Shown: positions 418-56,344 of the stretch, in pieces
Layout of the letters: each line of letters begins with the position of its first letter
Numbering within the stretch: position 1 is the first letter of the stretch
Source of the DNA: Tubiluchus corallicola
Lineage: Eukaryota; Animalia; Priapulida
Assembly (NCBI GenBank): GCA_030141605.1
Contig: JAQGDQ010000071.1
Coordinates: 351,605-415,604 of the forward strand
DNA length: 64,000 nucleotides
Direction of reading: 5' to 3'
Notes under the pieces: model-generated
The model's database searches: none
What the model was told of the DNA's origin: nothing
Seen by the model: only the letters and a program-made list of their open reading frames with translations
Made by a program: the position numbers and the translations under genes

Positions 418-6151
<5,734 letters not shown>

Positions 6152-17800: not shown

Positions 17801-20714
17801 GTTGTGTTACGTAAAACAAATTTTTCGTCATCATGTAGGATATGGTCTGGTTGTAGTTGTCGTGAGTCATACATTATGAATCGAAGTGTGAGAAGTAGGG
17901 TGCATGGATTTTGGCAGTGGAAGCCAATAGTTTCCGCCATTACGTGTGGTCAGTTAACCTGTACAATTAGCTAGACTCTAACTGTTCAATACCTCAGACA
18001 GACAAGACTCCAGCCTGAGTCAGACCCATATCTAGAACAGCAAGAGGCTGACCCAGTCCGATAAGTAGATCAAACCTAGACTGTGAAAAATCTAACCACG
18101 ACTACAGCCAACCTTATACTAGCCTGTTATATGATGCATCATTAAATAAGATTATATAATGATTGTTTCATAATCACGCAACAATTACTGCAATCTAACT
18201 TTTTCATAATGACGCAAAACTTGTTACACAAAGTAGCATTTTTCTTATATTATGTTACGTGTAGTGAAAAGAGTGTTGTCGTTAGTGTGCTAACCAAGGA
18301 TATTGATGCACAAATACGTGTAATATTATAGCTAATTCTATGCAACGTCATTGCTTATGTTCACTGTGAAGCTAGAATTAAATTTTTTTATTTCATTTAC
18401 AAGCGGAGCAAGTAAGGTTGACTCTGCCATGCTCAGAGATGCAGGATTGGAAAATTGCGAGCCGGATCCGGCCAGTTATAACTGTGACCCGGATGCTAGA
18501 TTTCCTACATTTGACGGTTCGTGTAACAATCTCGAACATCCAGACTGGGGCGCTGTCGGATCACACCTAGTCAGGTCTCAGGATGCTAACTACTGTGATG
18601 GAGGTGTGTAGAGCACTCACTTTATTATATGTCTTCTTCGTTTATTGTTAAAAAAATATTCGCAGGCTTCTCATTTTTGTTTAATGTTAATGTTATTCTA
18701 AGCGAACCTTAAGGATCGGGCGTTTGAACATGAGTTTGAAAAATGAAAAAAATTCTATATAAAATTAGGGTCTTAACCACCAATCTGCCAGTGAGTAGTC
18801 ATCATTTGTACAAGTTTTTATGAGTCATTTATTTCAAATGGAATGGTCCCAATTTGCTGGAATTGTTTCAACGTTGTAATTATTTAGCACGAGAGTGACT
18901 ATCCAAAACACATGAAAAATAGATTCAATACTACGGTTTTATGTATTTATTTTAGTCGCCTTCCTTGAAGCAATTCCAAAGGATCTAATAGCTAAACTTC
19001 GGAGTGTTATGTGTTAAGCCAGTAGTCAAGTAGTAGGTTAATCATAAAGTTAGCTGGCCACAGCTCCAGAATAAGCCAGCGAAGCCTGTTTTGTAATCTG
19101 TTCGTGATTTTTGAACCTGTAATTAACCGATAATTTACTAGCCTGGTGATATAAGTTACATGTTTTCTTTGAAACTTTCATTGGATTTTAAGGGTACTCT
19201 GTAGCCTATAACTGCTTTATGTACAAGCATGGTTCTTCGAAAATCAATATAATTTGCTGTAGGGATAATATTACCCTACTTTAACTGATTTGCAGGCGAT
19301 ATAGGTATGGTGGCTGCTAAAATGATTTTTGCTGTTCTTTCTTGAAGACAAGTTATATCATTAAATGCTGCTTATTCCTACAGTTCCCCTTTGTGTATAA
19401 CAGTAACTCAAATGTGGCTGTACAATTGAATTGTATAATTGAATGCAAACTAATATAAGATCTAGTTCTTCTCAGCACGCCAATCTTTTGTGTAATTTAG
19501 TAATTTTGTTAAATCCTGGCGCAACGCTAGGTGTTGATCAGTTGCGACACCAAGAAGTTTTCTGCGTTTGTACTTCTTCTATGGTTTCATCGGTTGCATT
19601 TTCAATAACGATATCTTTGTTCTTCTTGTTGCTGCATGCAAATTTTTGCGCTCTACACATTATCATACTTTTGATTTTGCTAATATTTAATTTCGTCTTG
19701 TTATGGCTCGTCCATTTACTAATGTTTTTGGTGTCGGATTGTAGTTTTTATTCGACAATTTTCAAGTCTGCATTACCCGCATGCATTTCTGTTGAACATG
19801 CTTTTAAACTATTTGGCAAGTCGTTTATCTGTAGCAGGAAAATTGTAGGCCCAGCATAGATCCTTGTGGTATACCAGTTTTGATAATTTTAATTGTTCAG
19901 AATCTTGTCTTATAAAGTTGGACGCACTGGGATCTATTCGACAAATAGGGGCGGAACCAATTTAAGGCTGTCCTCCGTATGCCATAACATTTTAGTTTTC
20001 TTGTTACAATCTCATGATCAAGGATATCAAACGCTTCCTTTAGGTCTAAGCAGAGAACACCTGTAAATCTTCTGTCATCTATATTATTCAGCATTTTACC
20101 TGTGAGTGATATCAGTGCAGTTTCACAGTTAAGGTTTTCTCTAAAGCCAGACTGGTTTTCTGTTAAAAGACGGTGTGTTCAATATAACTGATTAAGCTAA
20201 ACTGCAACTAATCTTTCTTACCGTATCTAATACCTCACTTACAATAGGAAGGATGGAAATTGGGAGTAATTTTTAAGATCGTCCCGGTCATCAATTTTGT
20301 GCACGCCTCCGTTTTTAGTCACCAACAAAAAAGTTATTTCAAAACTGTAAAGTATTATTGATAACTTTATTTAGTTATAGTGAACGTAGCCTTTTCAACT
20401 TTTCCTTGACCTATTTGTTGTTCACTACTAACAAAAAGTCTTATCACTTTCTTGTTCAAACGTCAGGACAGTTTAACCTATTAAAATCGCGTACGTGAGA
20501 ATTTTATCTACAATTTTTCTTATAGAGGGTTCCCTCCGATGTTCCGTCAATGGTGGAGATTTGCCAAACGCAAGATCGATTAGCACCATTATTCACGAAT
20601 CACTGATGACCCCAGAGTTTGAGACAAGCGCGACACTGATGCTGATGCAATGGGGACAATTCTTAGATCACGATATTGTTTTAACTCCGTCAACGCAATT
20701 GCCATTTGATGTAG
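14898..20714 (+). CDS. Secreted animal heme peroxidase (peroxinectin/chorion-peroxidase-like), 5' part only; exons 14898-14911, 16340-16482, 17364-17472, 18404-18603, 20526-20714
   Basis: Phase-consistent exons give a signal peptide (VLVVLVLCVITCSA), RFPTFDGSCNNLEHPDWG, LPNARSIS and the distal heme motif QWGQFLDHDI. No later peroxidase exons found downstream. Confidence 0.9.
19200..20310 (-). mobile_element. Decayed CR1/L2-type LINE RT fragment in a peroxidase intron (bounds approximate)
   Basis: GVLCLDLKEAFDILDHEIVTRKLKCYGIRRTALNWFRPYLSNRSQCV; upstream frameshifted PISILPIVS and NQSGFRENLNCETALI. Confidence 0.8.
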
Positions 20715-21811
20715 GTAAGTGTGACGACCTTAAATGTTCGTATGTCCATGCGACTGTATGCCTGCAATTTGCAGTACAACATATGTCCACGAGGAGGAGG
20801 AGTGGCCGAAGTTGAGCAATATCTAGATTGGACAGTGAAAGATAGATAAACGCCGGGGCGGGGGGTCATTATTATGCCCCATTGCAAACGTTAATAAAAC
20901 ACTACTGCTGGTTTCGAAGATTTTCCTTGTTAATGAGCTAGGTTCCCGTCACGCCACAACGATCAACATTAAATAGATCCTGCCGTAGAGTGTCGAATTC
21001 TGGTTTGCCAAATCATGATTGGTCGATTGGTGCATACCAAATTGTATTAAAGAAATTTTCGTACATGTTGGTAGTGAAGGAACGGGGAACAAGCACCGTT
21101 TGGTTGAGAAAAAAGCAAATTTCATTTGGGACTTATTAGTAATAAATTGTTTCCGATAGTCAGTATGTTGCCCCCACTCCAAATAAATAAAGAAAATCCG
21201 CGAAAACCCCTAAAAAAGTGTGAAAACCCGTGTGAAAGTGCGCACGTGACCGAAATCGACGAAAAAGCGCGAAAAACAAAGAAAAACGAAGAAAAGGCGT
21301 GTGAAACGAGGTAAAAATTTTGCAGTTTTTCCCTCCCGCATGGCTTCATTTGGATCGAATGACCTTGAACTCTATAGGTCACGACCAAAGTTCATTGACC
21401 CCTGTCTCTGGATGGCTTCTTTTTTTGACACCCCATTTTAAACCGCGCAAAACCGCGGAAAAAAGGAAAGTGTGTGAAAGCGCATGAAAGCGTGTGAAAG
21501 CGTGTGAAAGCGTGTGAAAGTGTGTGAAACGAGGTGAAAAAGTGCCTCAAACGAAGAAAAGGAGAAGTGGAGTTCCCGCTCGAGTGACTAATTAGTGCTA
21601 ATTGGCGCTAATTGGCGAGCCCCCGCCACCCCTCCGGCCGCGTGCAAACGTCCGTCCCGGGTCGGGGACACCCCCCTGCAACCCACCCTCCGTCACGTGG
21701 AATCGTCCATTGCAGGCAATGAGGGAAATCTTCCCCCCCCACTCGGGTGCAGTGCCGGCCCTTTCATGACCACCGGGTGCCCCTTCGCGACCACTTCTCT
21801 CGCGGGTTTAG

Positions 21812-21851
<40 letters not shown>

Positions 21852-22049
21852 AGATTTATTTCAAACGCCAAAGTTCGATAAATGCATTTTCACAAATCTT
21901 TTTTATTGATGGATTACAAAAAATTTTTTTACATTTTTTATGCAAAATACATACGTGCTAAAACTAGATTATTATTATTATGGTGACGTGATAGTTCTAC
22001 ATTTTACGTTTTTTCGCAAATTACACAAATTACGCAAATTACAGTAAAA

Positions 22050-22640
22050 CTACACTAATGACGACGAGTGAGTACATGGATTGTCGTCGTCGTCGTCGAT
22101 GTGATACAGACAAACGTTATTGTTGTTAAAAACGAATTCGTTAAATTTGCGGAAAACGCGAGAGAAATCCTCGACCTTTGTCCCGCCCATCATTATTATG
22201 CTTCCGGTGTGAAAAATGTTCAGAGTAATTTGCTCGCATTTGCAAGTTAGTTTGGGAAATAGTTCCACTTCGTAAAACACTTCTCTAAATGAATGCGTCG
22301 AAGGACGAACGAGTTCTTCGTACAGTGCACCCAGTTTCAATCTGCAGCGAATTTTGGCTCTGGCGGTGATGGTGCGAAGTGCGATCCCGTCGGCGGGCGT
22401 CAGTCCGAGACCTTTCGAGAGTTCTTCGATCGCATTGCGTAGTACTTTTTCCTCCGAAAAACCGTTGGCCACCACGGAGCCGGAGGCAAAAATCATCAGC
22501 GTCCCGCCCAGTCGCTTTAGCAGAACCATTTGCGGTTTTCTTTCGTAGCGTCTTCCGCCCGTTCTCCGCCGGAGTTCGTTCAGATCGAAGCGCTGCGAGA
22601 ACGAAGCCGTGGCGACGATGTTGACCGTTTGGACTGACAC
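22050..22640 (-). CDS. Divergent TBP-like protein, left-arm copy (domain starts at GTG 22640; frame open to 23051)
   Basis: Two TBP repeats: VNIVATASFSQRFDLNEL...LMIFASGSVVANG and LRTITARAKIRCRLKL...FYEVELFPKL...LNIFHTGSIIMMGGTKVED. Intronless. Confidence 0.85.
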   Translation of the reverse strand: MSVQTVNIVATASFSQRFDLNELRRRTGGRRYERKPQMVLLKRLGGTLMIFASGSVVANGFSEEKVLRNAIEELSKGLGLTPADGIALRTITARAKIRCRLKLGALYEELVRPSTHSFREVFYEVELFPKLTCKCEQITLNIFHTGSIIMMGGTKVEDFSRVFRKFNEFVFNNNNVCLYHIDDDDDNPCTHSSSLV

Positions 22641-23092
22641 GTTAGAACGTAGTTGGCAATCGTTTCGGACGCCCGAACCGCTCTGCCTCGTCCGTTGCTC
22701 TGCCAACGTATGGCGGGCGGCGGGTGCTCGCTTTCCAGATCCTCTACGCGTATGACCACGCGATTTTTGGGGAGATGTTTTTTGACGAAATTGTACATCT
22801 CTGCTCCCTTGACGTAGGTGATCCTGCCTCTGGTGGTCTGTCGTAGAATGTTTTCCAATTCTGCGTACTCGATCATTCCCTCCTCCCACGAGATGCCGTG
22901 TATGTGTCTGATTAGGTAGTTGTAGGTGGATCGCTTGTGCTGGGGAACACGATTCCAGGGGTGGGGCGGTTTGAAGGTGTAGTTGTGATATATGCCGGTC
23001 TCTATTTCGCGAATTACCAAATTTTTGACCAGGTATTCTTCTTTTCCGCACTGGAAGGCATCTACGGTGAGAACTATGCTCGATTCAGACAT
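22580..23092 (-). CDS. DEDD/DnaQ-exonuclease-like protein of the type seen in invertebrate virus/Maverick-like insertions, 170 aa, left copy
   Basis: IVLTVDAFQ...YLVKNLVI...HNYTFKPPHPW...YLIRHIHGISWEEG...YVKG...VEDL motif order; family assignment is from memory. Confidence 0.6.
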   Translation of the reverse strand: MSESSIVLTVDAFQCGKEEYLVKNLVIREIETGIYHNYTFKPPHPWNRVPQHKRSTYNYLIRHIHGISWEEGMIEYAELENILRQTTRGRITYVKGAEMYNFVKKHLPKNRVVIRVEDLESEHPPPAIRWQSNGRGRAVRASETIANYVLTCQSKRSTSSPRLRSRSASI

Positions 23093-23315
23093 CTGTGACG
23101 ATGGGGGGTCCTTCTACGCCGTCGGCAACGAGTTTTCCTTCGATGACGATTTGCTTGTGATTGTTCACAAATTCCAGAGACTTGATTTTTTCGAAGGTGT
23201 ATTTTTTTATGACCTTGTTGGGGGCACTCTTGCGTGCGTTGGCGCGCTTGCCGCCCCGCGTCCCCGCTTGTTGTTGTTGCTTGCGAGGAACGGTGGTTAG
23301 AGGTTGTTTGAAATC
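23085..23315 (-). CDS. Small basic ORF/exon (DFKQPLTTVPRKQQQQ...GPPIVTDV*), unknown function
   Basis: Strong acceptor TTCTTCTTCTCTTGCAG ends at 23316; its stop overlaps the exonuclease start (ATGTCTGA). The right arm holds only a 5'-truncated copy (23625-23831). Confidence 0.45.
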   Translation of the reverse strand, partial: DFKQPLTTVPRKQQQQAGTRGGKRANARKSAPNKVIKKYTFEKIKSLEFVNNHKQIVIEGKLVADGVEGPPIVTDV

Positions 23316-23366
23316 CTGCAAGAGAAGAAGAACAATAGTTATAGTATTGTTGTTCGCTAACGACAA

Positions 23367-23534
23367 CTAGGCATTTTTGATGAGCCATTCTTTCAGATTT
23401 CTAGGTTTTTTGGGGGCAGTGGGGGTGAGCACCATCGGCGGCGATGGAGGGGGCGTCGCGGAAATTACGAGTTTGTCTTCTTCTTTATCATCATCTTTCT
23501 CCTCTTCCTCCTCCTCCTCTCGAAAGATGTCCAT
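23367..23534 (-). CDS. Acidic/Pro-rich small ORF in the palindrome spacer (55 aa from ATG; frame open to the arm junction)
   Basis: MDIFREEEEEEEKDDDKEEDKLVISATPPPSPPMVLTPTAPKKPRNLKEWLIKNA*; co-oriented with the left-arm ORFs. Confidence 0.4.
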   Translation of the reverse strand: MDIFREEEEEEEKDDDKEEDKLVISATPPPSPPMVLTPTAPKKPRNLKEWLIKNA

Positions 23535-23823
23535 TCGTGTCCCTCTCTCGCGTCTGCTTTTACACGGAGGGGCGGAGGTGCCGACGTCCGTGTCTGGCAG
23601 ACTTCTTTCCGTCCAGTTTGTCCAGTTCCTCGCAAGCAACAACAACAAGCGGGGACGCGGGGCGGCAAGCGCGCCAACGCACGCAAGAGTGCCCCCAACA
23701 AGGTCATAAAAAAATACACCTTCGAAAAAATCAAGTCTCTGGAATTTGTGAACAATCACAAGCAAATCGTCATCGAAGGAAAACTCGTTGCCGACGGCGT
23801 AGAAGGACCCCCCATCGTCACAG

Positions 23824-24336
23824 ATGTCTGAATCGAGCATAGTTCTCACCGTAGATGCCTTCCAGTGCGGAAAAGAAGAATACCTGGTCAAAAATTTGGT
23901 AATTCGCGAAATAGAGACCGGCATATATCACAACTACACCTTCAAACCGCCCCACCCCTGGAATCGTGTTCCCCAGCACAAGCGATCCACCTACAACTAC
24001 CTAATCAGACACATACACGGCATCTCGTGGGAGGAGGGAATGATCGAGTACGCAGAATTGGAAAACATTCTACGACAGACCACCAGAGGCAGGATCACCT
24101 ACGTCAAGGGAGCAGAGATGTACGATTTCGTCAAAAAACATCTCCCCAAAAATCGCGTGGTCATACGCGTAGAGGATCTGGAAAGCGACCACCCGCCGCC
24201 CGCCATACGTTGGCAGAGCAACGGACGAGGCAGAGCGGTTCGGGCGTCCGAAACGATTGCCAACTATGTTCTAACGTGTCAGTCCAAACGGTCAACATCG
24301 TCGCCACGGCTTCGTTCTCGCAGCGCTTCGATCTGA
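23824..24336 (+). CDS. DEDD/DnaQ-exonuclease-like protein, right-arm copy, 170 aa
   Basis: Inverted duplicate of 22580-23092 with two amino-acid differences (YN/YD, ESE/ESD). Confidence 0.6.
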   Translation: MSESSIVLTVDAFQCGKEEYLVKNLVIREIETGIYHNYTFKPPHPWNRVPQHKRSTYNYLIRHIHGISWEEGMIEYAELENILRQTTRGRITYVKGAEMYDFVKKHLPKNRVVIRVEDLESDHPPPAIRWQSNGRGRAVRASETIANYVLTCQSKRSTSSPRLRSRSASI

Positions 24337-24866
24337 ACGAACTCCGGCGGAGAACGGGCGGAAGACGCTACGAAAGAAAACCGCAAATGCTTCTGCTAAA
24401 GCGACTGGGCGGGACGCTGATGATTTTTGCCTCCGGCTCCGTGGTGGCCAACGGTTTTTCGGAGGAAAAAGTACTACGCAATGCGATCGAAGAACTCTCG
24501 AAAGGTCTCGGACTGACGCCCGCCGACGGGATCGCAATTCGCACCATCACCGCCAGAGCCAAAATTCGCTGCAGATTGAAACTGGGTGCACTGTACGAAG
24601 AACTCGTTCGTCCTTCGACGCATTCTTTTAGAGAAGTGTTTTACGAAGTGGAACTATTTCCCAAACTAACTTGCAAATGCGAGCAAATTACTCTGAACAT
24701 TTTTCACACCGGAAGCATAATAATGATGGGCGGGACAAAGGTCGAGGATTTCTCTCACGTTTTCCGCAAATTTAACGAATTCGTTTTTAACAACAATAAC
24801 GTTTGTCTGTATCACATCGACGACGACGACGACAATCCATGTACTCGCTCGTCGTCATTAGTGTAG
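24276..24866 (+). CDS. Divergent TBP-like protein, right-arm copy (domain starts at GTG 24276; frame open from 23865)
   Basis: Same two TBP repeats (VNIVATA..IFASG; YEVELFP..IFHTG). AATAAA at 25015 and 25062 downstream. Confidence 0.85.
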   Translation: MSVQTVNIVATASFSQRFDLNELRRRTGGRRYERKPQMLLLKRLGGTLMIFASGSVVANGFSEEKVLRNAIEELSKGLGLTPADGIAIRTITARAKIRCRLKLGALYEELVRPSTHSFREVFYEVELFPKLTCKCEQITLNIFHTGSIIMMGGTKVEDFSHVFRKFNEFVFNNNNVCLYHIDDDDDNPCTRSSSLV

Positions 24867-26282
24867 TTTTACTGTAATTTGCATAATTTGTGTAATTTGC
24901 GAAAAAAACGTAAAATGTAGAACTATCACGTCACCATAATAATAATAATAATCTAGTTTTAGCACGTATGTATTTTGCATAAAAAAATGTAAAAAAAATT
25001 TTTTGTAATCCATCAATAAAAAAGATTTGTGAAAATGCATTTATCGAACTTTGGCGTTTGAAATAAATCTCCACACACACACACACACACACACATCTAA
25101 ACCCGCGAGAGAAGTGGTCGCGGAAAAGGGAGGGCACCCGAGAGAGAGAAGTGGTCGCGGAAAAGGGCCGGCACTGCGCGAGTGGGGGGGGGGAAGATTT
25201 CCCTCATTGCCTGCAATGGACGATTCCACGTGACGGAGGGGTGGGTTGCAGGGGGGGTGTCCCCGACCCCCGGGACGGACGTTTGCACGCGGCGGAGGGG
25301 TGGCAGGGGCTCGCCAATTAGCGCCAATTAGCACTAATTAGTCCTCGGCGGGAACTCCACTTCTCCCTTTTTCTTCGTTTGAGGCGCTTTTTACCTCGTT
25401 TCACACACTTTCACACGCTTTCGCGCACTTTCACACACTTTCACGCGCTTTCACACACTTTCACATGCTTTCGCGCGGTTTTGCGCGGTTTAAAATGGGG
25501 TGTCAAAAAAAGAAGCCATCCAGGGGTCAATGAACTTTGGTCACGTGACCTAGAGTTCAAGGTCATTCGATCCAAATGAAGCCATGCGGGAGGGAAAAAC
25601 TGCAAAATTTTTACCTCGTTTCACACGCCTTTTCTTCGTTTTTCTTTGTTTTTCGCGCTTTTTCGTCGATTTCGGTCACGTGCGCACTTTCACACGGGTT
25701 TTCACACTTTTTTAGGGGTTTTCGCGGATTTTCGCACTTTTTTAGGGGTGTTTTTCCCCACCCCCCCGGGCAGCCAAAGGGGGGGTGGGGAAATCGGCCA
25801 GAGGCAAAACATCTATACTACTGAGGCCGAAATACCTGGGAAAGTTAAAGTTGTCCAAAAGTCCTGTAAGACCTTCACGACCTGGTAGAACCAGTACTTG
25901 ACAATAATTATTGAAATTATCTCTTTTACTGCATTTGTCACAGACTGGCAATGTTTAAAGCATGTGACGCAAATTGTGGCCTTCAACTATAGGTGACAGT
26001 AGGAAATTGTAATAAAACCCATCGACCTGTTTTTGTGACTTGATTATAGCTTTTTAATATAAGGCTTAGTTCTAAAAATCCTAACGTTGATTGGGATAAT
26101 ATGTACAAAACATCCAGGTTACAGAATTCTTGAGATTCGAACACCAAACTATCACTGTCCGTTTGTTTTGGATTTTTTTTTGTAAAAAATAAACCAAAAC
26201 AGGTACACCAGGGGAAAGTAATTTTTGTTATTATAATGGTTATTCTCGCGGTGATTTCCAAATAGTTGTTTTCTTTTTATAG

Positions 26283-40385
<14,103 letters not shown>

Positions 40386-47941: not shown

Positions 47942-50900
47942 TACTCATGGGATTGAATTAAGAACGCCCGCGTTCACACGTGTCTGTGTTGTCTAGTCAT
48001 TGGTTTGAATTCCAAAGGTTTCTGGTTCAAATATATTGTGTTCACTTTACCAATAACTGATAATCTCGAATTTAAACTTATAACTAATTAGCTAATTATT
48101 TTATTTAATTACTTTCCAGAAGTTCCAAGTCATCTTCATGACTACGATTCCTACGTGCGGTTCTGCTTTTACCCGGGGGAGGCAGCTCGACGTCCCGCGC
48201 CAGCCACGTTCTTACCAGAAGACATCGACCCCTCAACTTGCACGCACATCGTGTTTGGATACGCCACAATATTGGATAATGAGCTGACGGCCAAGTCAGA
48301 GTCAGATTTAGGTAAGTTGCTTGTTGCAAAGTGCTTTTGCCAATATGGTGTTATTGTTTACCATCCAAAGAAATTTCTGTGCTCATTGCGATGATGATGA
48401 TGATTATGGCGACGACGACAACGATGATGATTCAGCTTTAAGTAGAACAGACAAACAAAGCTGCAATGAGATTTTTTATTGCCCACGATAAATTACGAAT
48501 TACAACTACATAACAGAGATTAGTCACACAGGGCAACTACACGTAGCATTTTTTAATTTTTTTATATGACTGTCTTTCGTATCGAACACGCAACCTCCTG
48601 TACGGAGCTCGGACGTTTTACCTATCAGGCTACGCAGCCACTGTATTTGCCTAAGTGTTTGAAGAGAGACAGTACGACGTGACTATTAAACGAATACACA
48701 ACATTGTCGTTCTGGCTATTGAGATTGCAAGCTGAGGTAAAAAGGTATCGAGGTTTAGGGACTGAAGTCGTGGACACTGGGTAGTGGGTTTTGAGTTTAA
48801 ACAGGTACTGTGGGTAGAAATACCAAAAAACGTCAGGTCTATTTTATACACTCCCGAAATACTTTTCAGATTGCACGCAAAGTGTTAAAATTACTTGAAG
48901 ATCACCAGTCGAATATTCATTCACGAAAAAAGGTTTATAAATAGAAGTAAATAAGTATAATCATTTTACTAGTTTTACAATCTGTTCACAAACCTACTAA
49001 ATTGACAATATGATAAAAATCATGGTTTTTTGGTTCTTTTCTTAGAGAAGCGGTACGAAATCTCGACTTCACACTTAATCGCATTTAGATATAGATCTAG
49101 TAACTAATTTAATCTACAGCCAAAGGGAAGAAATAAAATGAGGTCTGCAACATCTTGATGGCTCTGCTTGTTAAATGGTTTCAGCTTATCGTAGCCCCGA
49201 ATGCACCACTCATATTTTACGCCTAGCACACGAACGCAGCGCACCCTGTGCTTAACTCCCCAGCCTGTGGTATCATTGATGACTTTCTTTTCTGGCTAAT
49301 TATCACATTGGACACAATTCAATTCAATTCAATAATTTTTTATTTGGCTGATTTGCAACACAAAACATTAAACTATATACGTAATGATAGCAACAATGCG
49401 ATAACAAAAACAGGTATGGTTTGAAAATTCTACAGAGTAGGATCGTGAACTTTCCAGACTCACCCCGAGACATGTCTTCTGTTCCTGAAATGGTAACTCG
49501 CGTAATTTCGTAACTTTGAAGCTCGTAGCTCTAATTTTAAATGCTTTTACTCACTTTCTGCATATAGTATTTTTTAGCACTTCTAGTTTTAGTCTAGGTA
49601 AATTTTAATTGTATGTTTTTGTGGCTTTTATGCTGAAATAAATAGTACAATGAATGGATCAATCATAAATCAATCATTCTGACATGCTCTTCTCCTCACT
49701 TCTTAGCTTAACAAACCCAAATGAGGTTCAGTTTTAGTTATTTCAATGGCAAATAAAAAAAATTGATTTAATTTTGCTTTAATTTTGTTGCGTTTTTCCA
49801 ACTTTTTTGTTAAATGATAAAGCACATAAAAATTGACGATATAAAACACATTGAAAAATCCCTGGTAAAGACCTACTTAACAATAACCAAGGTACACGGT
49901 GCAAGAAAGCAACAAACTGAACAAAGACCTGATCAAGTAAAAGTGCATTCAAAGCTGTGGTACAAGGAAAAAACCTAATGAAGCAATGAGTATTGAAGTA
50001 ACTTTCCACAAATTTTATATTTTGTCAGAATTTCAAGAGGCCATTTATGCACTTTAACCCATGTCACAAAAATGATGTGTCGCATTCATTGTTAAACCAA
50101 ATTTTGAGCTAAACGTTTTTTAAAACATCGTTATTGCATTGTTTAAGACGCTGGTTGGGCTTTAAATTGCTATTTGCAGTAATACCTAACTAAAAAATCC
50201 GTTTGCACTAACTGTTTCTGTCGAAGCATTTAATAAAATTCTTTTTTAGAATTGTTTCAGAGAATCCTGGCCCTAAAAAACCAAAATCCAGATCTGAAGG
50301 TACTGCTAGCAGTAGGCGGTTGGGCAGAAGGTTCACAGCGTTTCAGCAATATGGCGTGGTCTCTCAACTCACGTCTTACCTTTGTTAATTCTGTACTTCA
50401 TTTCCTGAGACAATATGGTTTCGATGGACTAAATGTCGACTGGGAGTTTCCGGGCTACGAACGAAGAGGTGGACATCCTTCAGATAGAGACAATTTACCA
50501 CTGCTCTTAGAGGTATTGATATAAAAATATTAGTAGTATTTGACAGGCTATAACACTCTAACTGCTTTGCTCTTGAAATTCATCTTTTCAAGCATTTTAA
50601 AGCAGGTTGTTAGTTCTGCTAGTTGACCGTCGGTTCTTCGTGTCTATATGGTGTAGTTTTGGCTTGAACAAATTAATGCAAAGTGAGGACTCTTCTTACC
50701 CAATATCTCTGTGTCAATTTTAAATTTATGTACAATTGTGTGTTTAATTTTTAGGAGCTTCACAAGATCTTTACGATGGAAGCCAAGTTTTCCGGCAACA
50801 ATCAACTAATCTTGGCCACCACGATACCGGGCGCTAAATACTGGATAGATTTGGGTTACGACATCCCGAAAATCTCTTCGTGCGTTTATAAATACGTTTC

Positions 50901-53900
50901 TTATTTTTGATGAAAATAATTGGTACTAATAACGCTATTTAAAAGTTGAATTATCAGTGAATGATAAATTATTATGTAGAAGATAACCGCCCTGCAGGTC
51001 AAGTGACTAACCTCAAAATTGTCCTTGAAATCTATCATCTACTACCATTAATCCTTGCAAAGCGCCTTGTGTAAAAAACATCTCTGGTTATTTGTGCTCA
51101 AAGAGAAAAAGCTTCTCATAATATTCTTGATTTCTAAATGCAGGTTTAGTGATTATTTACCAATGATGACTTATCACCTTAATGGAATATGGAACAAACA
51201 CGCTGGTCATGGAAGTCCTTTGCATCCTCACTCCTACGATGTGGACAAAACTGCGAATATTGTAAGTGAAGAGGTCGCCTTTGAAATATCTTTGTTTTTA
51301 GTAATTTCAGTTAAGTGTAAGACAACTTGGAAAATCACACACAAGCAAGGGCAGCATTTTTGTGTCATGTGTGTGAAAGGGATAAATTATTGGAAAATCA
51401 CGGAAGCACTTTTGAGACTAATAGCTATGAAGATGCGGTATGATCGTTTTCCTTAGATAACCTAGTAATCTTCCATGCCATATAGTGTTCCTTGGTTTTT
51501 AGGGTACTTGGATAACCTAATAATCTTCCATGCCATGTAGTGTTCCTTAGTTTTTAGTGTACTTGGATAACCTAATAATCTTCCATGCCATGTAGTGTTC
51601 CTTAGTTTTTAGTGTACTTAGATAATCTAATAATCTTCCATGCCATATAATGTTCCTTAGTTTTTAGTGTACTTAGATAACCTAATAATCTTCCATGCCA
51701 TGTAGTGTTCCTTAGTTTTTAGGGTACTTAAATAACCTAGTAATCTTTCATGTCATATAGCGTTCCTTAGTTTTTAGTGTACTTAGATAATCTAATAATC
51801 TTCCATGCCATGTAATGTTCCTTAGTTTTTAGTGTACTTAGATAATCTAATAATCTTCCATGCCATGTAATGTTCCTTAGTTTTTAGCGTACTTAGATAA
51901 TCTAATAATCTTCCATGCCATATAATGTTCTTTAGTTTTTAGTGTACTTAGATAATCTAATAATCTTCCATGCCATGTAGTGTTCCTTAGTTTTTAGTGT
52001 ACTTAGATAATCTATTAATCTTCCATGCCATGTAGTGTTGCTTAGTTTTTAGTGTACTTAGATAATCTAATAATCTTCCATGCCATGTAGTGTTCCTTAG
52101 TTTTTAGTGTATTTAGATAATCTAATAATCTTCCATGCCATATAACGTTCCTTAGTTTTTAGTGTACTTAGACAATCTAATAATCTTCCATGCCATATAG
52201 CGTTCCTTAGTTTTTAGTGTACTTAGATAATTTAATAATCTTCCATGCCATATAGCGTTCCTTAGTTTTTAGTGTACTTAGATAACCTAAATCCTATTAT
52301 CGTTGCTTTTTTTTAAGGAATTCATCGTCCAATATTGGATAAACCATGGAACGGATCCAAAGAAATTGCTGCTGGGAATTCCTCTTTTTGGACAGACTTA
52401 CACTCTCCAAGACCCATCTGACCACATGTTAAATGCACCTATTGTAGGAAGTGGCAAGGCTGGACACATGTATCAACAGGAAGGAATGATGCCGTACTAC
52501 GAGGTTTGTGCCCACAAAACTTTGCTTGAGCTTATTCTTATTAAGATTTTCGGCTTCTTGTGGATTGGTAAACACCAATCTTATTACTGCTTAAGTGATA
52601 GATTTAGCCAACTGAACAACTGATAATGCTTCTTGCGAATATTTTTTGAATGACTTACAGATCTACGTCTTCACTCATAATAAATGAATAAATTACGACA
52701 AAATTTGCAGATTATAAAGATTCGCAAATCTGTTTCGGAAAATTCACAAACATTTTAATGGTACCAATGTGCGGCATTTGTCACATTTGCAAATAAATAA
52801 AAATTGTGGTTTATTTCTATTAATTTTAATGACTTGCATTACTTAAATCTTTTGTAGGTGTGTTCTGAAGTGATGCCAAGCTATGAAAGCTTTTGGGTTG
52901 AAGATCAGCTTGTTCCATTTGCTTACAAAAATGACCAATGGATTGGCTACGAGGATTCAAGGAGTATTAGTGAAAAGGTAACAATCCTTTGCAGTATATT
53001 TGGACAAGTTCTAGAACTTCCATCACCAAACTTTCACTAATTTTTTTGTACGTATTGTTGACCACAGTTAGCATTCAACTGGTTACTGATCACCAACTTT
53101 TGTAATTTTTGCAACGCATTTGCATGTTATCAACGGGCCTCATTTTTCCCTGACTGACAATAGGGTTCGTCTAACTAGTTTTTGTTTGTAGGTCAAGTAT
53201 GTGATCGACAATCACCTTGGAGGCGTTATGGTCTGGGCATTAGGTTTTGATGATTTTAAAGGTCATTGTAATCATGGAAGGAATCCTCTGTTGACCACAA
53301 TAAAAACAGAATTGCTGGAAGTGACACAGGTGACCTATGTAATCCACACAAAATCTTCAAATGTTTTACAGCAGTTGCCGCACAAGTATGAAACGGGTGC
53401 AGTAGAACCACATTATGCAACATCACATCACGGTGAGACGTACAGGCGTCATACTGTGCAACATCGGCGACACTACGTACAACATGTATCCCATCAGCAA
53501 GAAGGACAACACCCTGTTCATGGATATGATGAGCACCATGCCTACCATGGGCACAGTCGCAGTCGCAGAGTGGAGTCATCATATTCACGGCACGGGAATT
53601 ATCACGATGCGTATCCTCATCAAACACAAGGAAGTTACATACCATATCAAGAACACGAAATGATTCCCCACGAAACGTACAATTACGAAACATATCCACA
53701 CAGAGATGCATATGAAGTCTACCCTAGCAACAGCTATCCTTATGACGCTCACAATTATGTAATATATCTGCCGGAGCAGTATGACGTGCACCCTCATCAA
53801 ACACATGAGAATTACGGTGCATATTCAGCACATGGACAGTATGATGATTTCGAAGTACATCCTCGTGAAAGTTCTGAAATATATCCAGTAAACGAGCCGC

Positions 53901-56344
53901 ATGCGTACCCTTATGAAAAAAGCAATTATTACGATACTTACCCTGGGTCTGAACTCTATGAAGTTCATCCTTATGAAAGTTATGGTTATGAAACACACCC
54001 TGATGAACTGTATGCTGAACATGGACATTATGAAGGGCATCCTCGTGAAACATACCCTGAACATGGACATTATGAAGGGCATCCTCGTGAAACATATCCT
54101 GAACATGGACATTATGAAGGGCATCCTCGTGAAACATACCCTGAACATGGACATTATGAAGTGCATCCTCGTGAAACATACCCTGAACATGGACATTATG
54201 AAGTGCATCCTCGTGAAACATACCCTGAACATGGACATTATGAAGTGCATCCTCATGAAACATACCCTGAACATGGACATTATGAAGTGCATCCTCGTGA
54301 AACATACCCTGAACATGGACACTATGAAGTGCATCCTCATGAAACATACCCTGAACATGGACATTATGAAGTGCATCCTCGTGAAACATACCCTGAACAT
54401 GGACATTATGAAGTGCTTCCTCATGAAACATACCCTGAACATGGACACTATGAAGTGCTTCCTCATGAAACATACCCTGAACATGGACACTATGAAGTGC
54501 ATCCTCATGAAACATACCCTGAACATGGACACTATGAAGTGCATCCTCGTGAAACATACCCTGAACATGGACATTATGAAGTGCATCCTCGTGAAACATA
54601 CCCTGAACATGGACATTATGAAGTGCATCCTCATGAAACATACCCTGAACATGGACATTATGAAGTGCATCCTCATGAAACATACCCTGAACATGGACAT
54701 TATGAAGTGCTTCCTCATGAAACATACCCTGAACATGGACACTATGAAGTGCATCCTCATGAAGCGTACCCTGAACATGGACACTATGAAGTGCTTCCTC
54801 ATGAAACATACCCTGAACATGGACACTATGAAGTGCATCCTCATGAAACATACCCTGAACATGGACACTATGAAGTGCATCCTCGTGAAACATACCCTGA
54901 ACATGGACATTATGAAGTGCATCCTCGTGAAACATACCCTGAACATGGACATTATGAAGTGCATCCTCATGAAACATACCCTGAACATGGACATTATGAA
55001 GTGCATCCTCATGAAACATACCCTGAACATGGACATTATGAAGTGCTTCCTCATGAAACATACCCTGAACATGGACACTATGAAGTGCATCCTCATGAAA
55101 CATACCCTGAACATGGACATTATGAAGTGCTTCCTCATGAAACATACCCTGAACATGGACACTATGAAGTGCATCCTCATGAAACATACCCTGAACATGG
55201 ACACTATGAAGTGCATCCTCATGAAACGTACCCTGAACATGGACACTATGAAGTTCATCCTAATGAATTATATCCTCATGAAGAGTATCCTGAACATGGA
55301 CACTATGAAGTGCATCCTCATGAAACGTATCCTGAACATGGACACTATGAAGTGCATCCTCATGAAGAGTATCCTGAACATGGACACTATGAAGTGCATC
55401 CTCATGAAACGTATCCTGAACATGGACACTATGAAGTGCATCCTCATGAAACGTACCCTGAACATGGACACTATGAAGTGCATCCTCATGAAACGTATCC
55501 TGAATATGGACACTATGAAGTGCATCCTCATGAAACGTACCCTGAATATGGACACTATGAAGTGCATCCTCATGAAACGTACCCTGAACATGGACACTAT
55601 GAAGTGCATCCTCATGAAACGTACCCTGAACATGGACACTATGAAGTGCATCCTCATGAAACGTACCCTGAACATGGACACTATGAAGTGCATCCTCATG
55701 AAACGTACCCTGAACATGGACACTATGAAGTGCATCCTCATGAAACATACCCTGAACATGGACACGATGCATATGAAAGCTATCCAGGCCACTATGATAC
55801 GTATCCATCACATGTTTCCACAGTTGGTATTCCATTTCCACACCATACAGCTTATTCTTATGAAGGGTATCCTACAAATCAATCCTATGAACAATATCCA
55901 CGTAATACTTACAACGATTATGAATTACCTGGTACTGTTGGACACGAGACATATCCCAGTAATACTCATGGGGGCGAAAGCCTTGGCCCAGTAGTTGCCC
56001 AGGAAGAGCAGAGGCCATATAATCCAGAATTGGAGGAAACAAAACTTTCGGATTCCGGTTCATCTGCTTCTGGAAGAAACGGCGCTGTGGGAATGGCTAC
56101 AGAAAGTACGCAATGTGAGGTGAAAGGACCAGGTCCCTCTTGCTCCGGACATTCGCACATGGTAATGGCAAATCCAATAAACTGTCGCAAGTACTATCTA
56201 TGTCTGTGGCAGAACACACCCAATGAAATGCGTGTTCCAATGAACTGCCCGGAGGGAACAGTCTTTCATCCATTCAAATACATGTGTGATGATAAGGAAA
56301 ATGTTGATACATCCGTAATATGTAAATGTGGAGAAGAGTCGTGA
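46717..56344 (+). CDS. Secreted GH18 chitinase-like protein with His/Glu/Tyr/Pro repeat linker and C-terminal CBM14, ~1408 aa; exons 46717-46786, 48120-48311, 50250-50512, 50755-50879, 51144-51261, 52318-52503, 52858-52977, 53192-56344
   Basis: Signal peptide MQGIGVCLVLVLLAGLSST; IDPSTCTHIVFGYA, KVLLAVGGW, FDGLNVDWEFP, KLLLGIPLFG, QWIGYED, LGGVMVWALGFDDF; CBM14 ANPINCRKYYLC...CPEGTVFHP..MC. All intron phases consistent (4227 nt). Confidence 0.93.
51453..52290. repeat. 55-bp intronic minisatellite, ~15 copies
   Basis: Unit TTAGATAATCTAATAATCTTCCATGCCATGTAGTGTTCCTTAGTTTTTAGTGTAC. Confidence 0.95.
54016..55765 (+). repeat. Coding 42-bp tandem repeat, ~42 copies of (H/R)ETYPEHGHYEVHP
   Basis: In frame within the last chitinase exon; one 15-nt insertion near 55260. 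Confidence 0.95.

Follow-up and report, generated by a model that had tools for sequence, protein, structure and literature searches.

A TBP-like gene of probable viral type in a likely defective, folded-back Maverick/Polinton element from the priapulid Tubiluchus corallicola

A stretch of 64,000 nucleotides from the genome of the priapulid Tubiluchus corallicola (contig JAQGDQ010000071.1, positions 351,605 to 415,604, hereafter the window) contains a repetitive element with a gene for a protein similar to the TATA-binding protein (TBP), which raises the question of what kind of element carries such a gene and what the protein would do there. The answer that we favor, and regard as moderately probable, is that it is a viral-type TBP in a likely defective, folded-back Maverick/Polinton, and that such proteins in intact elements would recruit host TFIIB and RNA polymerase II for the transcription of capsid and packaging genes. 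The features of the element are as follows:

21192..25822, no strand: whole element, a multi-copy near-palindrome of 4.6 kb with GC and CpG above those of the flanks
21192-23291 and 23625-25732: element arms, around a unique centre of 333 nt
21192..22008, minus strand: non-coding terminal repeat region, left copy; lacks the outermost ~90 nt and with them the end motif
22050..22640, minus strand: TBP-like gene, left-arm copy; 5 substitutions and 0 indels relative to the right copy, 99% identical
22580..23092, minus strand: 170-aa ORF, left-arm copy
23085..23315, minus strand: ORF of unassigned function, preceded by a strong splice-acceptor-like site and with a stop codon that overlaps the following ATG
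23367..23534, minus strand: acidic and Pro-rich ORF of 55 aa, located in the unique centre and called from the sequence
23625..23633, no strand: 9-nt microhomology at the fold-back junction, matching 23283-23291 inverted
23625-23831, plus strand: partial copy of the ORF at 23085..23315
23824..24336, plus strand: 170-aa ORF, right arm; overlaps the start of the TBP frame by 61 nt
24276..24866, plus strand: right-arm copy of the TBP-like gene, 196 codons beginning with GTG and with its first ATG at 24387 (Pfam PF00352, AlphaFold2, Foldseek)
24908..25822, plus strand: non-coding terminal repeat region, right; ends in ACTACT, with AATAAA at 25015

The right-arm TBP frame was uninterrupted and contained two Pfam TBP repeats (PF00352, E 4e-22), in agreement with the first-pass annotation, which had described a bare two-repeat core of ~195 amino acids. 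The structure predicted with AlphaFold2 from an alignment of 20 sequences was a complete two-lobed saddle (pLDDT 92.2, pTM 0.84), and the top solved structure in a Foldseek search with this model was yeast TBP (1tbp; E 6e-11, TM 0.76), so the failure to model as a TBP saddle that had been named as a refuting outcome did not occur. Both the two repeats and the saddle fold that characterize the PF00352 superfamily were present, according to Pfam and the model, respectively.

Yeast residue numbers were reached through a canonical plant TBP with a single constant offset, anchoring positions 6-164 of the window protein to positions 68-228 of the yeast protein. In this numbering N7 corresponded to N69, F51 to F116, T90 to N159, E124 and E126 to E186 and E188, F128 to F190, and F143 to F207, while yeast F99 was matched by P36 in the multiple alignment and by Q37 in the pairwise alignment, with the Phe being lost in both. 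Three of the 4 intercalating Phe residues (yeast 99, 116, 190, and 207) were thereby found in the window protein, with Pro at position 99, and the C-lobe stirrup glutamates that contact TFIIB in canonical TBP were both present. The earlier reading by eye, according to which F116, F190, F207, and N69 are kept, F99 is gone, N159 has become Thr, and the second-repeat stirrup with its glutamates persists, was borne out in all of these respects. Its acidic DDDDD tail was also confirmed in the window protein, but the tail was encoded by a (GAC)5 run, was poorly modelled (pLDDT 62/49), and was missing from the nearest relative, P0002, which was 59% identical with an open frame, and it was therefore dropped as a family feature.

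The protein shares its fold and the residues N69, F116, E186, E188, F190, and F207 with the cellular TBP and TBPL1/TRF2 proteins (PF00352), as far as these are described in the available text of PMC3142196. It differs from them by an identity of only 24% to 29% to three canonical eukaryotic TBP cores, by the replacements of F99 with Pro and N159 with Thr, by the lack of an N-terminal domain, and by an acidic helix 2, with 3 basic and 4 acidic residues versus 6 basic residues in three canonical TBPs, such that the canonical basic N-lobe patch was absent. Furthermore, Phe51 was located at the N.L5.1 position, which we infer to be yeast F116 and where TBPL1/TRF2 has Trp (PMC7221094). For comparison, the canonical TBP cores of yeast and human are about 80% identical.

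The gene is present twice because the element is folded back on itself, and the second, 99% identical copy had been overlooked in the first-pass annotation. From the centre outward, the unassigned ORF is followed in each arm by the 170-aa ORF, then by the TBP gene, and finally by non-coding repeat sequence of about 820 nt; the terminal inverted repeats, which consist of these about 820 nt of non-coding sequence in both arms, belong to the fold-back. The suggestion that the gene is borne by an element was supported by the multi-copy, 4.6-kb structure with a Maverick-type terminus: the right end, ACTACT at 25817-25822, matches the Maverick end motif (AGT)2//(ACT)2 in its 3′ form (PMC8097293), and a flank contig ceased to match the window at 25823. 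Contig depth was 536 over the TBP gene versus about 17 in the flank in run X2, and 13,740 just upstream of the gene versus 162 in run X1, values that show a repeat family and do not give a copy number; run X1 may derive from the source sample.

The end motif was found at the right end only, the left end being lost, and the 6 bases past the right end, searched for as a 6-bp target-site duplication, were not found before the left arm. None of the Maverick core genes (pPolB, integrase, ATPase, capsids, and protease) was identified in the window element by inspection of ORFs and Pfam searches, and we have therefore filed it as a likely defective derivative of a Maverick/Polinton and not as an intact member. 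Since core genes, left end, and target-site duplication are all missing, the Maverick identity is indirect. It resembles Mavericks/Polintons as described in the available text of PMC8097293 in its (ACT)2 3′ end, long terminal repeat, compact and overlapping genes, and many copies, and differs from them in lacking the core genes, one terminus, and the target-site duplication, and in being folded back.

The window copy is likely to be a folded-back or head-to-head deletion product. The join between the centre and the left arm was spanned by a deep contig of run X2, while 3 contigs of run X1 and 1 contig of run X2 departed from the window sequence at 23633. None of the contigs listed bridged the right join (23625-23633), so the right fold-back junction is seen in this assembly only.

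It was also noted that positions 23316-23345 (minus strand), in front of the unassigned ORF, contain a strong branch-point, a pyrimidine tract, and a CAG acceptor-like site, and that a 3-nt length variant of the pyrimidine tract was common in reads; the motif suggests that element genes may be spliced. The ORF itself had no Pfam match above the cut-off. As for the 170-aa ORF, its Atlas matches were unnamed, mostly arthropod clusters at 0.94-0.96, with Maelstrom at 0.86, and it is possibly an adintovirus Maelstrom-like (MAEL) accessory gene, which we mention as a lead from sequence. No support for Maelstrom was obtained from Pfam, PDB, or BLAST, no relatives were recovered in the word-index search, and no alignment was obtained with the MAEL-like ORF at locus L013. 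One contig of run X6, which we guess to be RNA, contained a diverged relative of the ORF, corresponding to window positions 23852-24039.

On the host side of the left end, haem peroxidase exons were identified at 18336-18611 and 20477-20715 (plus strand), with a reverse-transcriptase fragment in the intron (19897-20178, minus strand), and the element begins about 480 nt past the donor of the second exon. No downstream peroxidase exons were found in the window; the peroxidase gene may be truncated at the element, and we therefore do not claim an insertion into an intact intron. Further along, the window contains a host gene with RhoGEF and PH-domain exons (34466-34690 and 37195-37566, plus strand) and a host chitinase (53228-56344 and 50237-50521, plus strand), in which a GH18 exon is followed by a 1,038-aa ORF that carries both a CBM14 domain and a long tandem repeat with a 42-nt unit. 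Together with the peroxidase exons, these neighbours mark the host as an animal.

Is the gene a peculiarity of this element? A phmmer search of 1.84 billion representatives produced 109 matches at E values up to 0.001, and a word-index search produced 1 relative, while the viral contigs scanned contained neither the window TBP or relatives nor one further motif. A DNA motif from the second repeat, which forced E186, E188, F190, and F/Y207, identified 25 metagenome loci, all of which were partial and 11 of which came from three related accession series; other proteins were chosen by similarity. A Polinton core gene (rve integrase, A32 ATPase, adenain protease, pPolB, or a capsid-like ORF) was present at 12 of the 25 loci, which were drawn from 7 series. 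The rve integrase was found at 8 loci, the A32/AAA ATPase at 4, the adenain protease at 4 (two of them weak), and pPolB at 1, and mutually homologous capsid-like ORFs, which had no Pfam or PDB match and were named by gene order and mutual homology, were found at 7. With PC4-like genes included, 17 of the 25 loci contained a core gene or a PC4-like gene, 1 contained an archaeal-type TBP, and 7 had no context. We consider it well supported that the TBP gene belongs to a widespread element family. No element-encoded TFIIB was found among 106 ORFs, picked by eye out of about 160, that were scanned from 23 of the 25 loci, and one could have been missed because the loci are all partial.

The PC4-like genes, present at 12 of the 25 loci, mostly encoded two PC4 domains, and genes with two such domains per chain were located directly upstream of the TBP gene at L002, L005, L006, L012, L016, L020, L022, and L024; the two-domain chain may imitate a PC4 dimer within one polypeptide. 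PC4 binds single-stranded DNA, and together with the position of the TBP gene next to the terminal repeat in the window element, its company suggests an alternative in which the TBP would not be a transcription factor but would bind DNA during replication or packaging, perhaps at the terminal repeats in concert with the PC4-like protein. We consider this role quite improbable, given that the position of the TBP gene differs among the loci and that both of the stirrup glutamates, known for their contact with TFIIB (PMC7221094, available text), are kept.

Several other arrangements were observed at these loci. L013 contained a tandem pair of TBP-like genes (607-3057, minus strand), one near-canonical and one highly derived (a frame of 281 codons), located behind the MAEL-like ORF and beside protease and capsid-like genes. 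RING-finger genes adjoined the TBP gene in the Polinton-type loci L004 (2281-2640), L010 (807-1199), and L020 (6917-7438), the last of which encoded a CARD-RING protein. At L025, the archaeal-type TBP gene was located in a virus-like or mobile region with genes for an EVE-domain protein and an N6 methylase. P0006 was a DPANN archaeal protein of 702 amino acids that, in addition to its long C-terminal part, contained four TBP-like stretches.

To place the window TBP relative to cellular proteins, we inferred a quick tree of 111 rows, in which it was placed among 23 short TBPs lacking an annotated origin and away from the canonical TBPs and those that we had labelled archaeal from their sequences. 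In the final tree of 32 selected rows, from which the longest branches and unlabelled rows had been dropped and which included no TRF2 sequence, it belonged to an 11-row group (99/94 support) that also contained the TBP of L008, where protease and capsid-like genes are neighbours. One side of a branch with 85/95 support comprised all 19 element-type rows, although long branches may draw the element TBPs together. A topology with the window TBP grouped with 7 canonical eukaryotic TBPs was rejected in the AU test (p 0.0003). The nesting within host TBP as a retrocopy, the other refuting outcome named beforehand, did not occur, and the claim that the protein is neither canonical TBP nor TRF2 was upheld against canonical TBP by the AU test and the low identity, and against TBPL1 by the Phe at the Trp position, in a tree that included no TRF2. 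Being intronless, the gene could be taken for a host TBP or TRF2 retrocopy that was captured by the repeat and is decaying. This explanation is very improbable and largely refuted, since besides the divergence from canonical cores, the substitutions are common to the whole family.

What the protein would do is suggested by the residues that its sub-family has kept and lost. Among the 13 aligned members of this sub-family, position 99 was Pro in all 13 and position 159 was Thr or Ser in 12, while E188 and F190 were present in all 13 and Phe occupied positions 116 and 207 in 12 members apiece, with the second-repeat residues being partly fixed by the search. Helix 2 contained 0 to 3 basic residues in the sub-family rows and P0002, versus 6 in three canonical TBPs. 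In the other 14 element-type TBPs, F99 was kept in 12 and the basic helix in many. According to the available text of PMC7221094, the C-lobe Glu pair interacts with TFIIB and the basic N-lobe patch with TFIIA, TAF1, Brf1, and Mot1, and the TBPs of large viruses, which often lose both, are accompanied by a virus-encoded TFIIB. F99 and F116, which correspond to human Phe193 and Phe210, are responsible for the kink at the 3′ end of the TATA box (PMC3142196, available text).

Based on these features, we propose that the TBP of intact elements would bind an element-specific TATA-like box, that the kept Glu pair would dock host TFIIB, and that host RNA polymerase II would thereby be recruited for transcription of the capsid and packaging genes. 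With the Glu pair conserved and no TFIIB gene recognized at the partial loci, TFIIB of the host is the likely partner. DNA would still be kinked by the retained F116, F190, and F207, while the change of F99 to Pro, the shortened first stirrup, and the change of N159 to Thr would alter the reading of the 3′ half of the box, as should follow for F99 from the kink that it makes there with F116. The loss of the basic helix 2 would remove the surface for TFIIA, TAF1, Brf1, and Mot1.

A candidate box was noted in the loci themselves. In a post hoc test (p 2e-4), 9 of 34 morphogenesis or integrase genes had the hexamer TAAGA[AG] in the 100 nt preceding them, versus 1 of 34 for the opposite strand and a background of 6%, the matches being from four loci of the F99-keeping group, and the box was found only in loci whose TBP has an aromatic residue at position 99. 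The window element contained no TAAGA box and no morphogenesis or integrase genes. Upstream of the capsid-like gene, L004 and L008 had TATAAACAAAGA in common. TATAAG was not enriched overall (54 versus 67 expected), and in an unbiased 6-mer scan of the upstream regions no promoter box survived multiple testing, the top match being mostly within the coding end of the capsid gene.

The same residues could also be read as those of a decoy or repressor that binds TATA-like DNA or TFIIB and cannot join TFIID or TFIIA, and that would dampen host transcription or the early promoters of the element. Such a protein would keep the TFIIB-side glutamates and lose the helix-2 surface, as observed, and cellular TLF can inhibit transcription through sequestration of TFIIA (PMC3142196, available text). 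However, the three DNA-kinking Phe residues and N69 are kept family-wide and some relatives have a common upstream box, and we consider a decoy unlikely.

The right-arm frame opens at a GTG (24276, with A at -3), which is the earliest plausible start, and the first in-frame ATG corresponds to M38 at 24387, while the first conserved strand with N69, which is central to the saddle, precedes M38. Neither the two arms nor the listed common alleles had an in-frame ATG before M38, and none was present within the 30 upstream letters of two relatives. The options are a non-AUG start codon or a spliced leader. An alternative in which the protein has a long N-terminal extension, or is a fusion, read through the frame open from 23832 (codon shuffles, P about 0.02) was rejected because codon changes in the upstream region of an abundant sub-family favor the frame of the 170-aa ORF, in which 5 of 11 were synonymous, versus 1 of 11 in the TBP frame. 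A frameshift at the sole canonical slippery heptamer (23892) was also rejected, as it is far upstream and fits no better than the extension, and so was a splice acceptor at 24281, which was not conserved among diverged copies.

These observations raise the possibility that the gene is a passenger in this host lineage, functional elsewhere in the family, with the copies here making no full-length protein and spreading non-autonomously. The missing ATG ahead of the first conserved strand would be consistent with this, as would the missing core genes; lacking late genes, the window copy could act only in trans, if translated at all. Moreover, in a diverged low-depth copy, 13 of 14 codon changes before M38 were non-synonymous, one of them a stop, versus 1 of 6 after M38 (among the 25 of 37 differences listed), which counts against constraint before M38 in that copy. 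This copy looks decayed, with a different 5′ end and several CpG-type changes. A third, distant relative, on the other hand, has retained the NIVAT strand with synonymous changes (with a loose end at 24313), and P0002 has an open frame. The two arms differed by 9 substitutions and 0 indels over 1,283 nt that are nearly all coding, versus 12 substitutions and 25 indel events over 817 non-coding nt, a contrast that points to selection on the frames. We give the passenger explanation a low probability.

The reading as a viral-type TBP that recruits host factors has counterparts in known systems. In the literature on Polintons, Mavericks, and adintoviruses, we found only the label "TBP" in the legend to Fig. 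5, a MELD virus map, of Starrett et al. 2021 (PMC8502044) and its preprint; figures and slide supplements may say more, and subscription papers and Repbase were outside the scope. The MELD virus so labelled resembles the window family in having a TBP-like gene, in a virus with an adintovirus-like PolB, and its TBP is known from the legend label, with no family, residue, or promoter analysis in the text available. In Fig. S2 of the same paper, an adintovirus has the order "MAEL MOSUB ITR" at one end, as visible in the available part of the source (PMC8502044). This resembles the order of the MAEL-like ORF, the TBP gene, and the terminus in the window. We take MOSUB to be a homologue of PC4/Sub1.

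The TBPs of large dsDNA viruses are likewise bare two-lobed cores that have kept the L5.1 Phe and lost the basic signature of the N lobe, and their TFIIB-binding Glu is about 40% conserved, with nearly all of those viruses encoding TFIIB (Ravarani et al. 2020, PMC7221094, available text). In contrast, the window family has kept both glutamates, partly owing to the design of the search, no TFIIB was seen in the partial loci, and the carrier is small and integrating. Nuclear herpesviruses employ a TBP mimic for late genes, and the mimics of beta- and gammaherpesviruses (KSHV ORF24, EBV BcRF1) resemble the proposed role in that late genes are transcribed by host polymerase II from a variant box. 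According to the parts of the sources available, however, these are large proteins that act in a six-member viral complex and bind polymerase II directly, whereas the window TBP is a 196-aa core with clear similarity to cellular TBP. We conclude that the window TBP is a real, element-borne TBP from a distinct family, probably a variant of the viral TBPs, in a defective palindromic copy.

A bolder reading, which we put forward tentatively and consider rather less likely than not to hold in full, is that animal Mavericks/Polintons have ancient, monophyletic, minimal TBPs that would form the smallest viral pre-initiation system, with a family-specific box, host TFIIB, escape from TFIIA, TAF1, and Mot1, and a late-gene switch of their own, throttled here by initiation at a non-AUG codon or through splicing. 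A TBP encoded by the element itself, with the TFIIB contact retained and the host regulatory surface lost, would provide a concrete and testable mechanism for the timing of capsid gene expression in Mavericks/Polintons, and it bears on whether these elements need a helper virus for their capsid genes. It would also offer a natural TBP of altered specificity for the study of TATA recognition.
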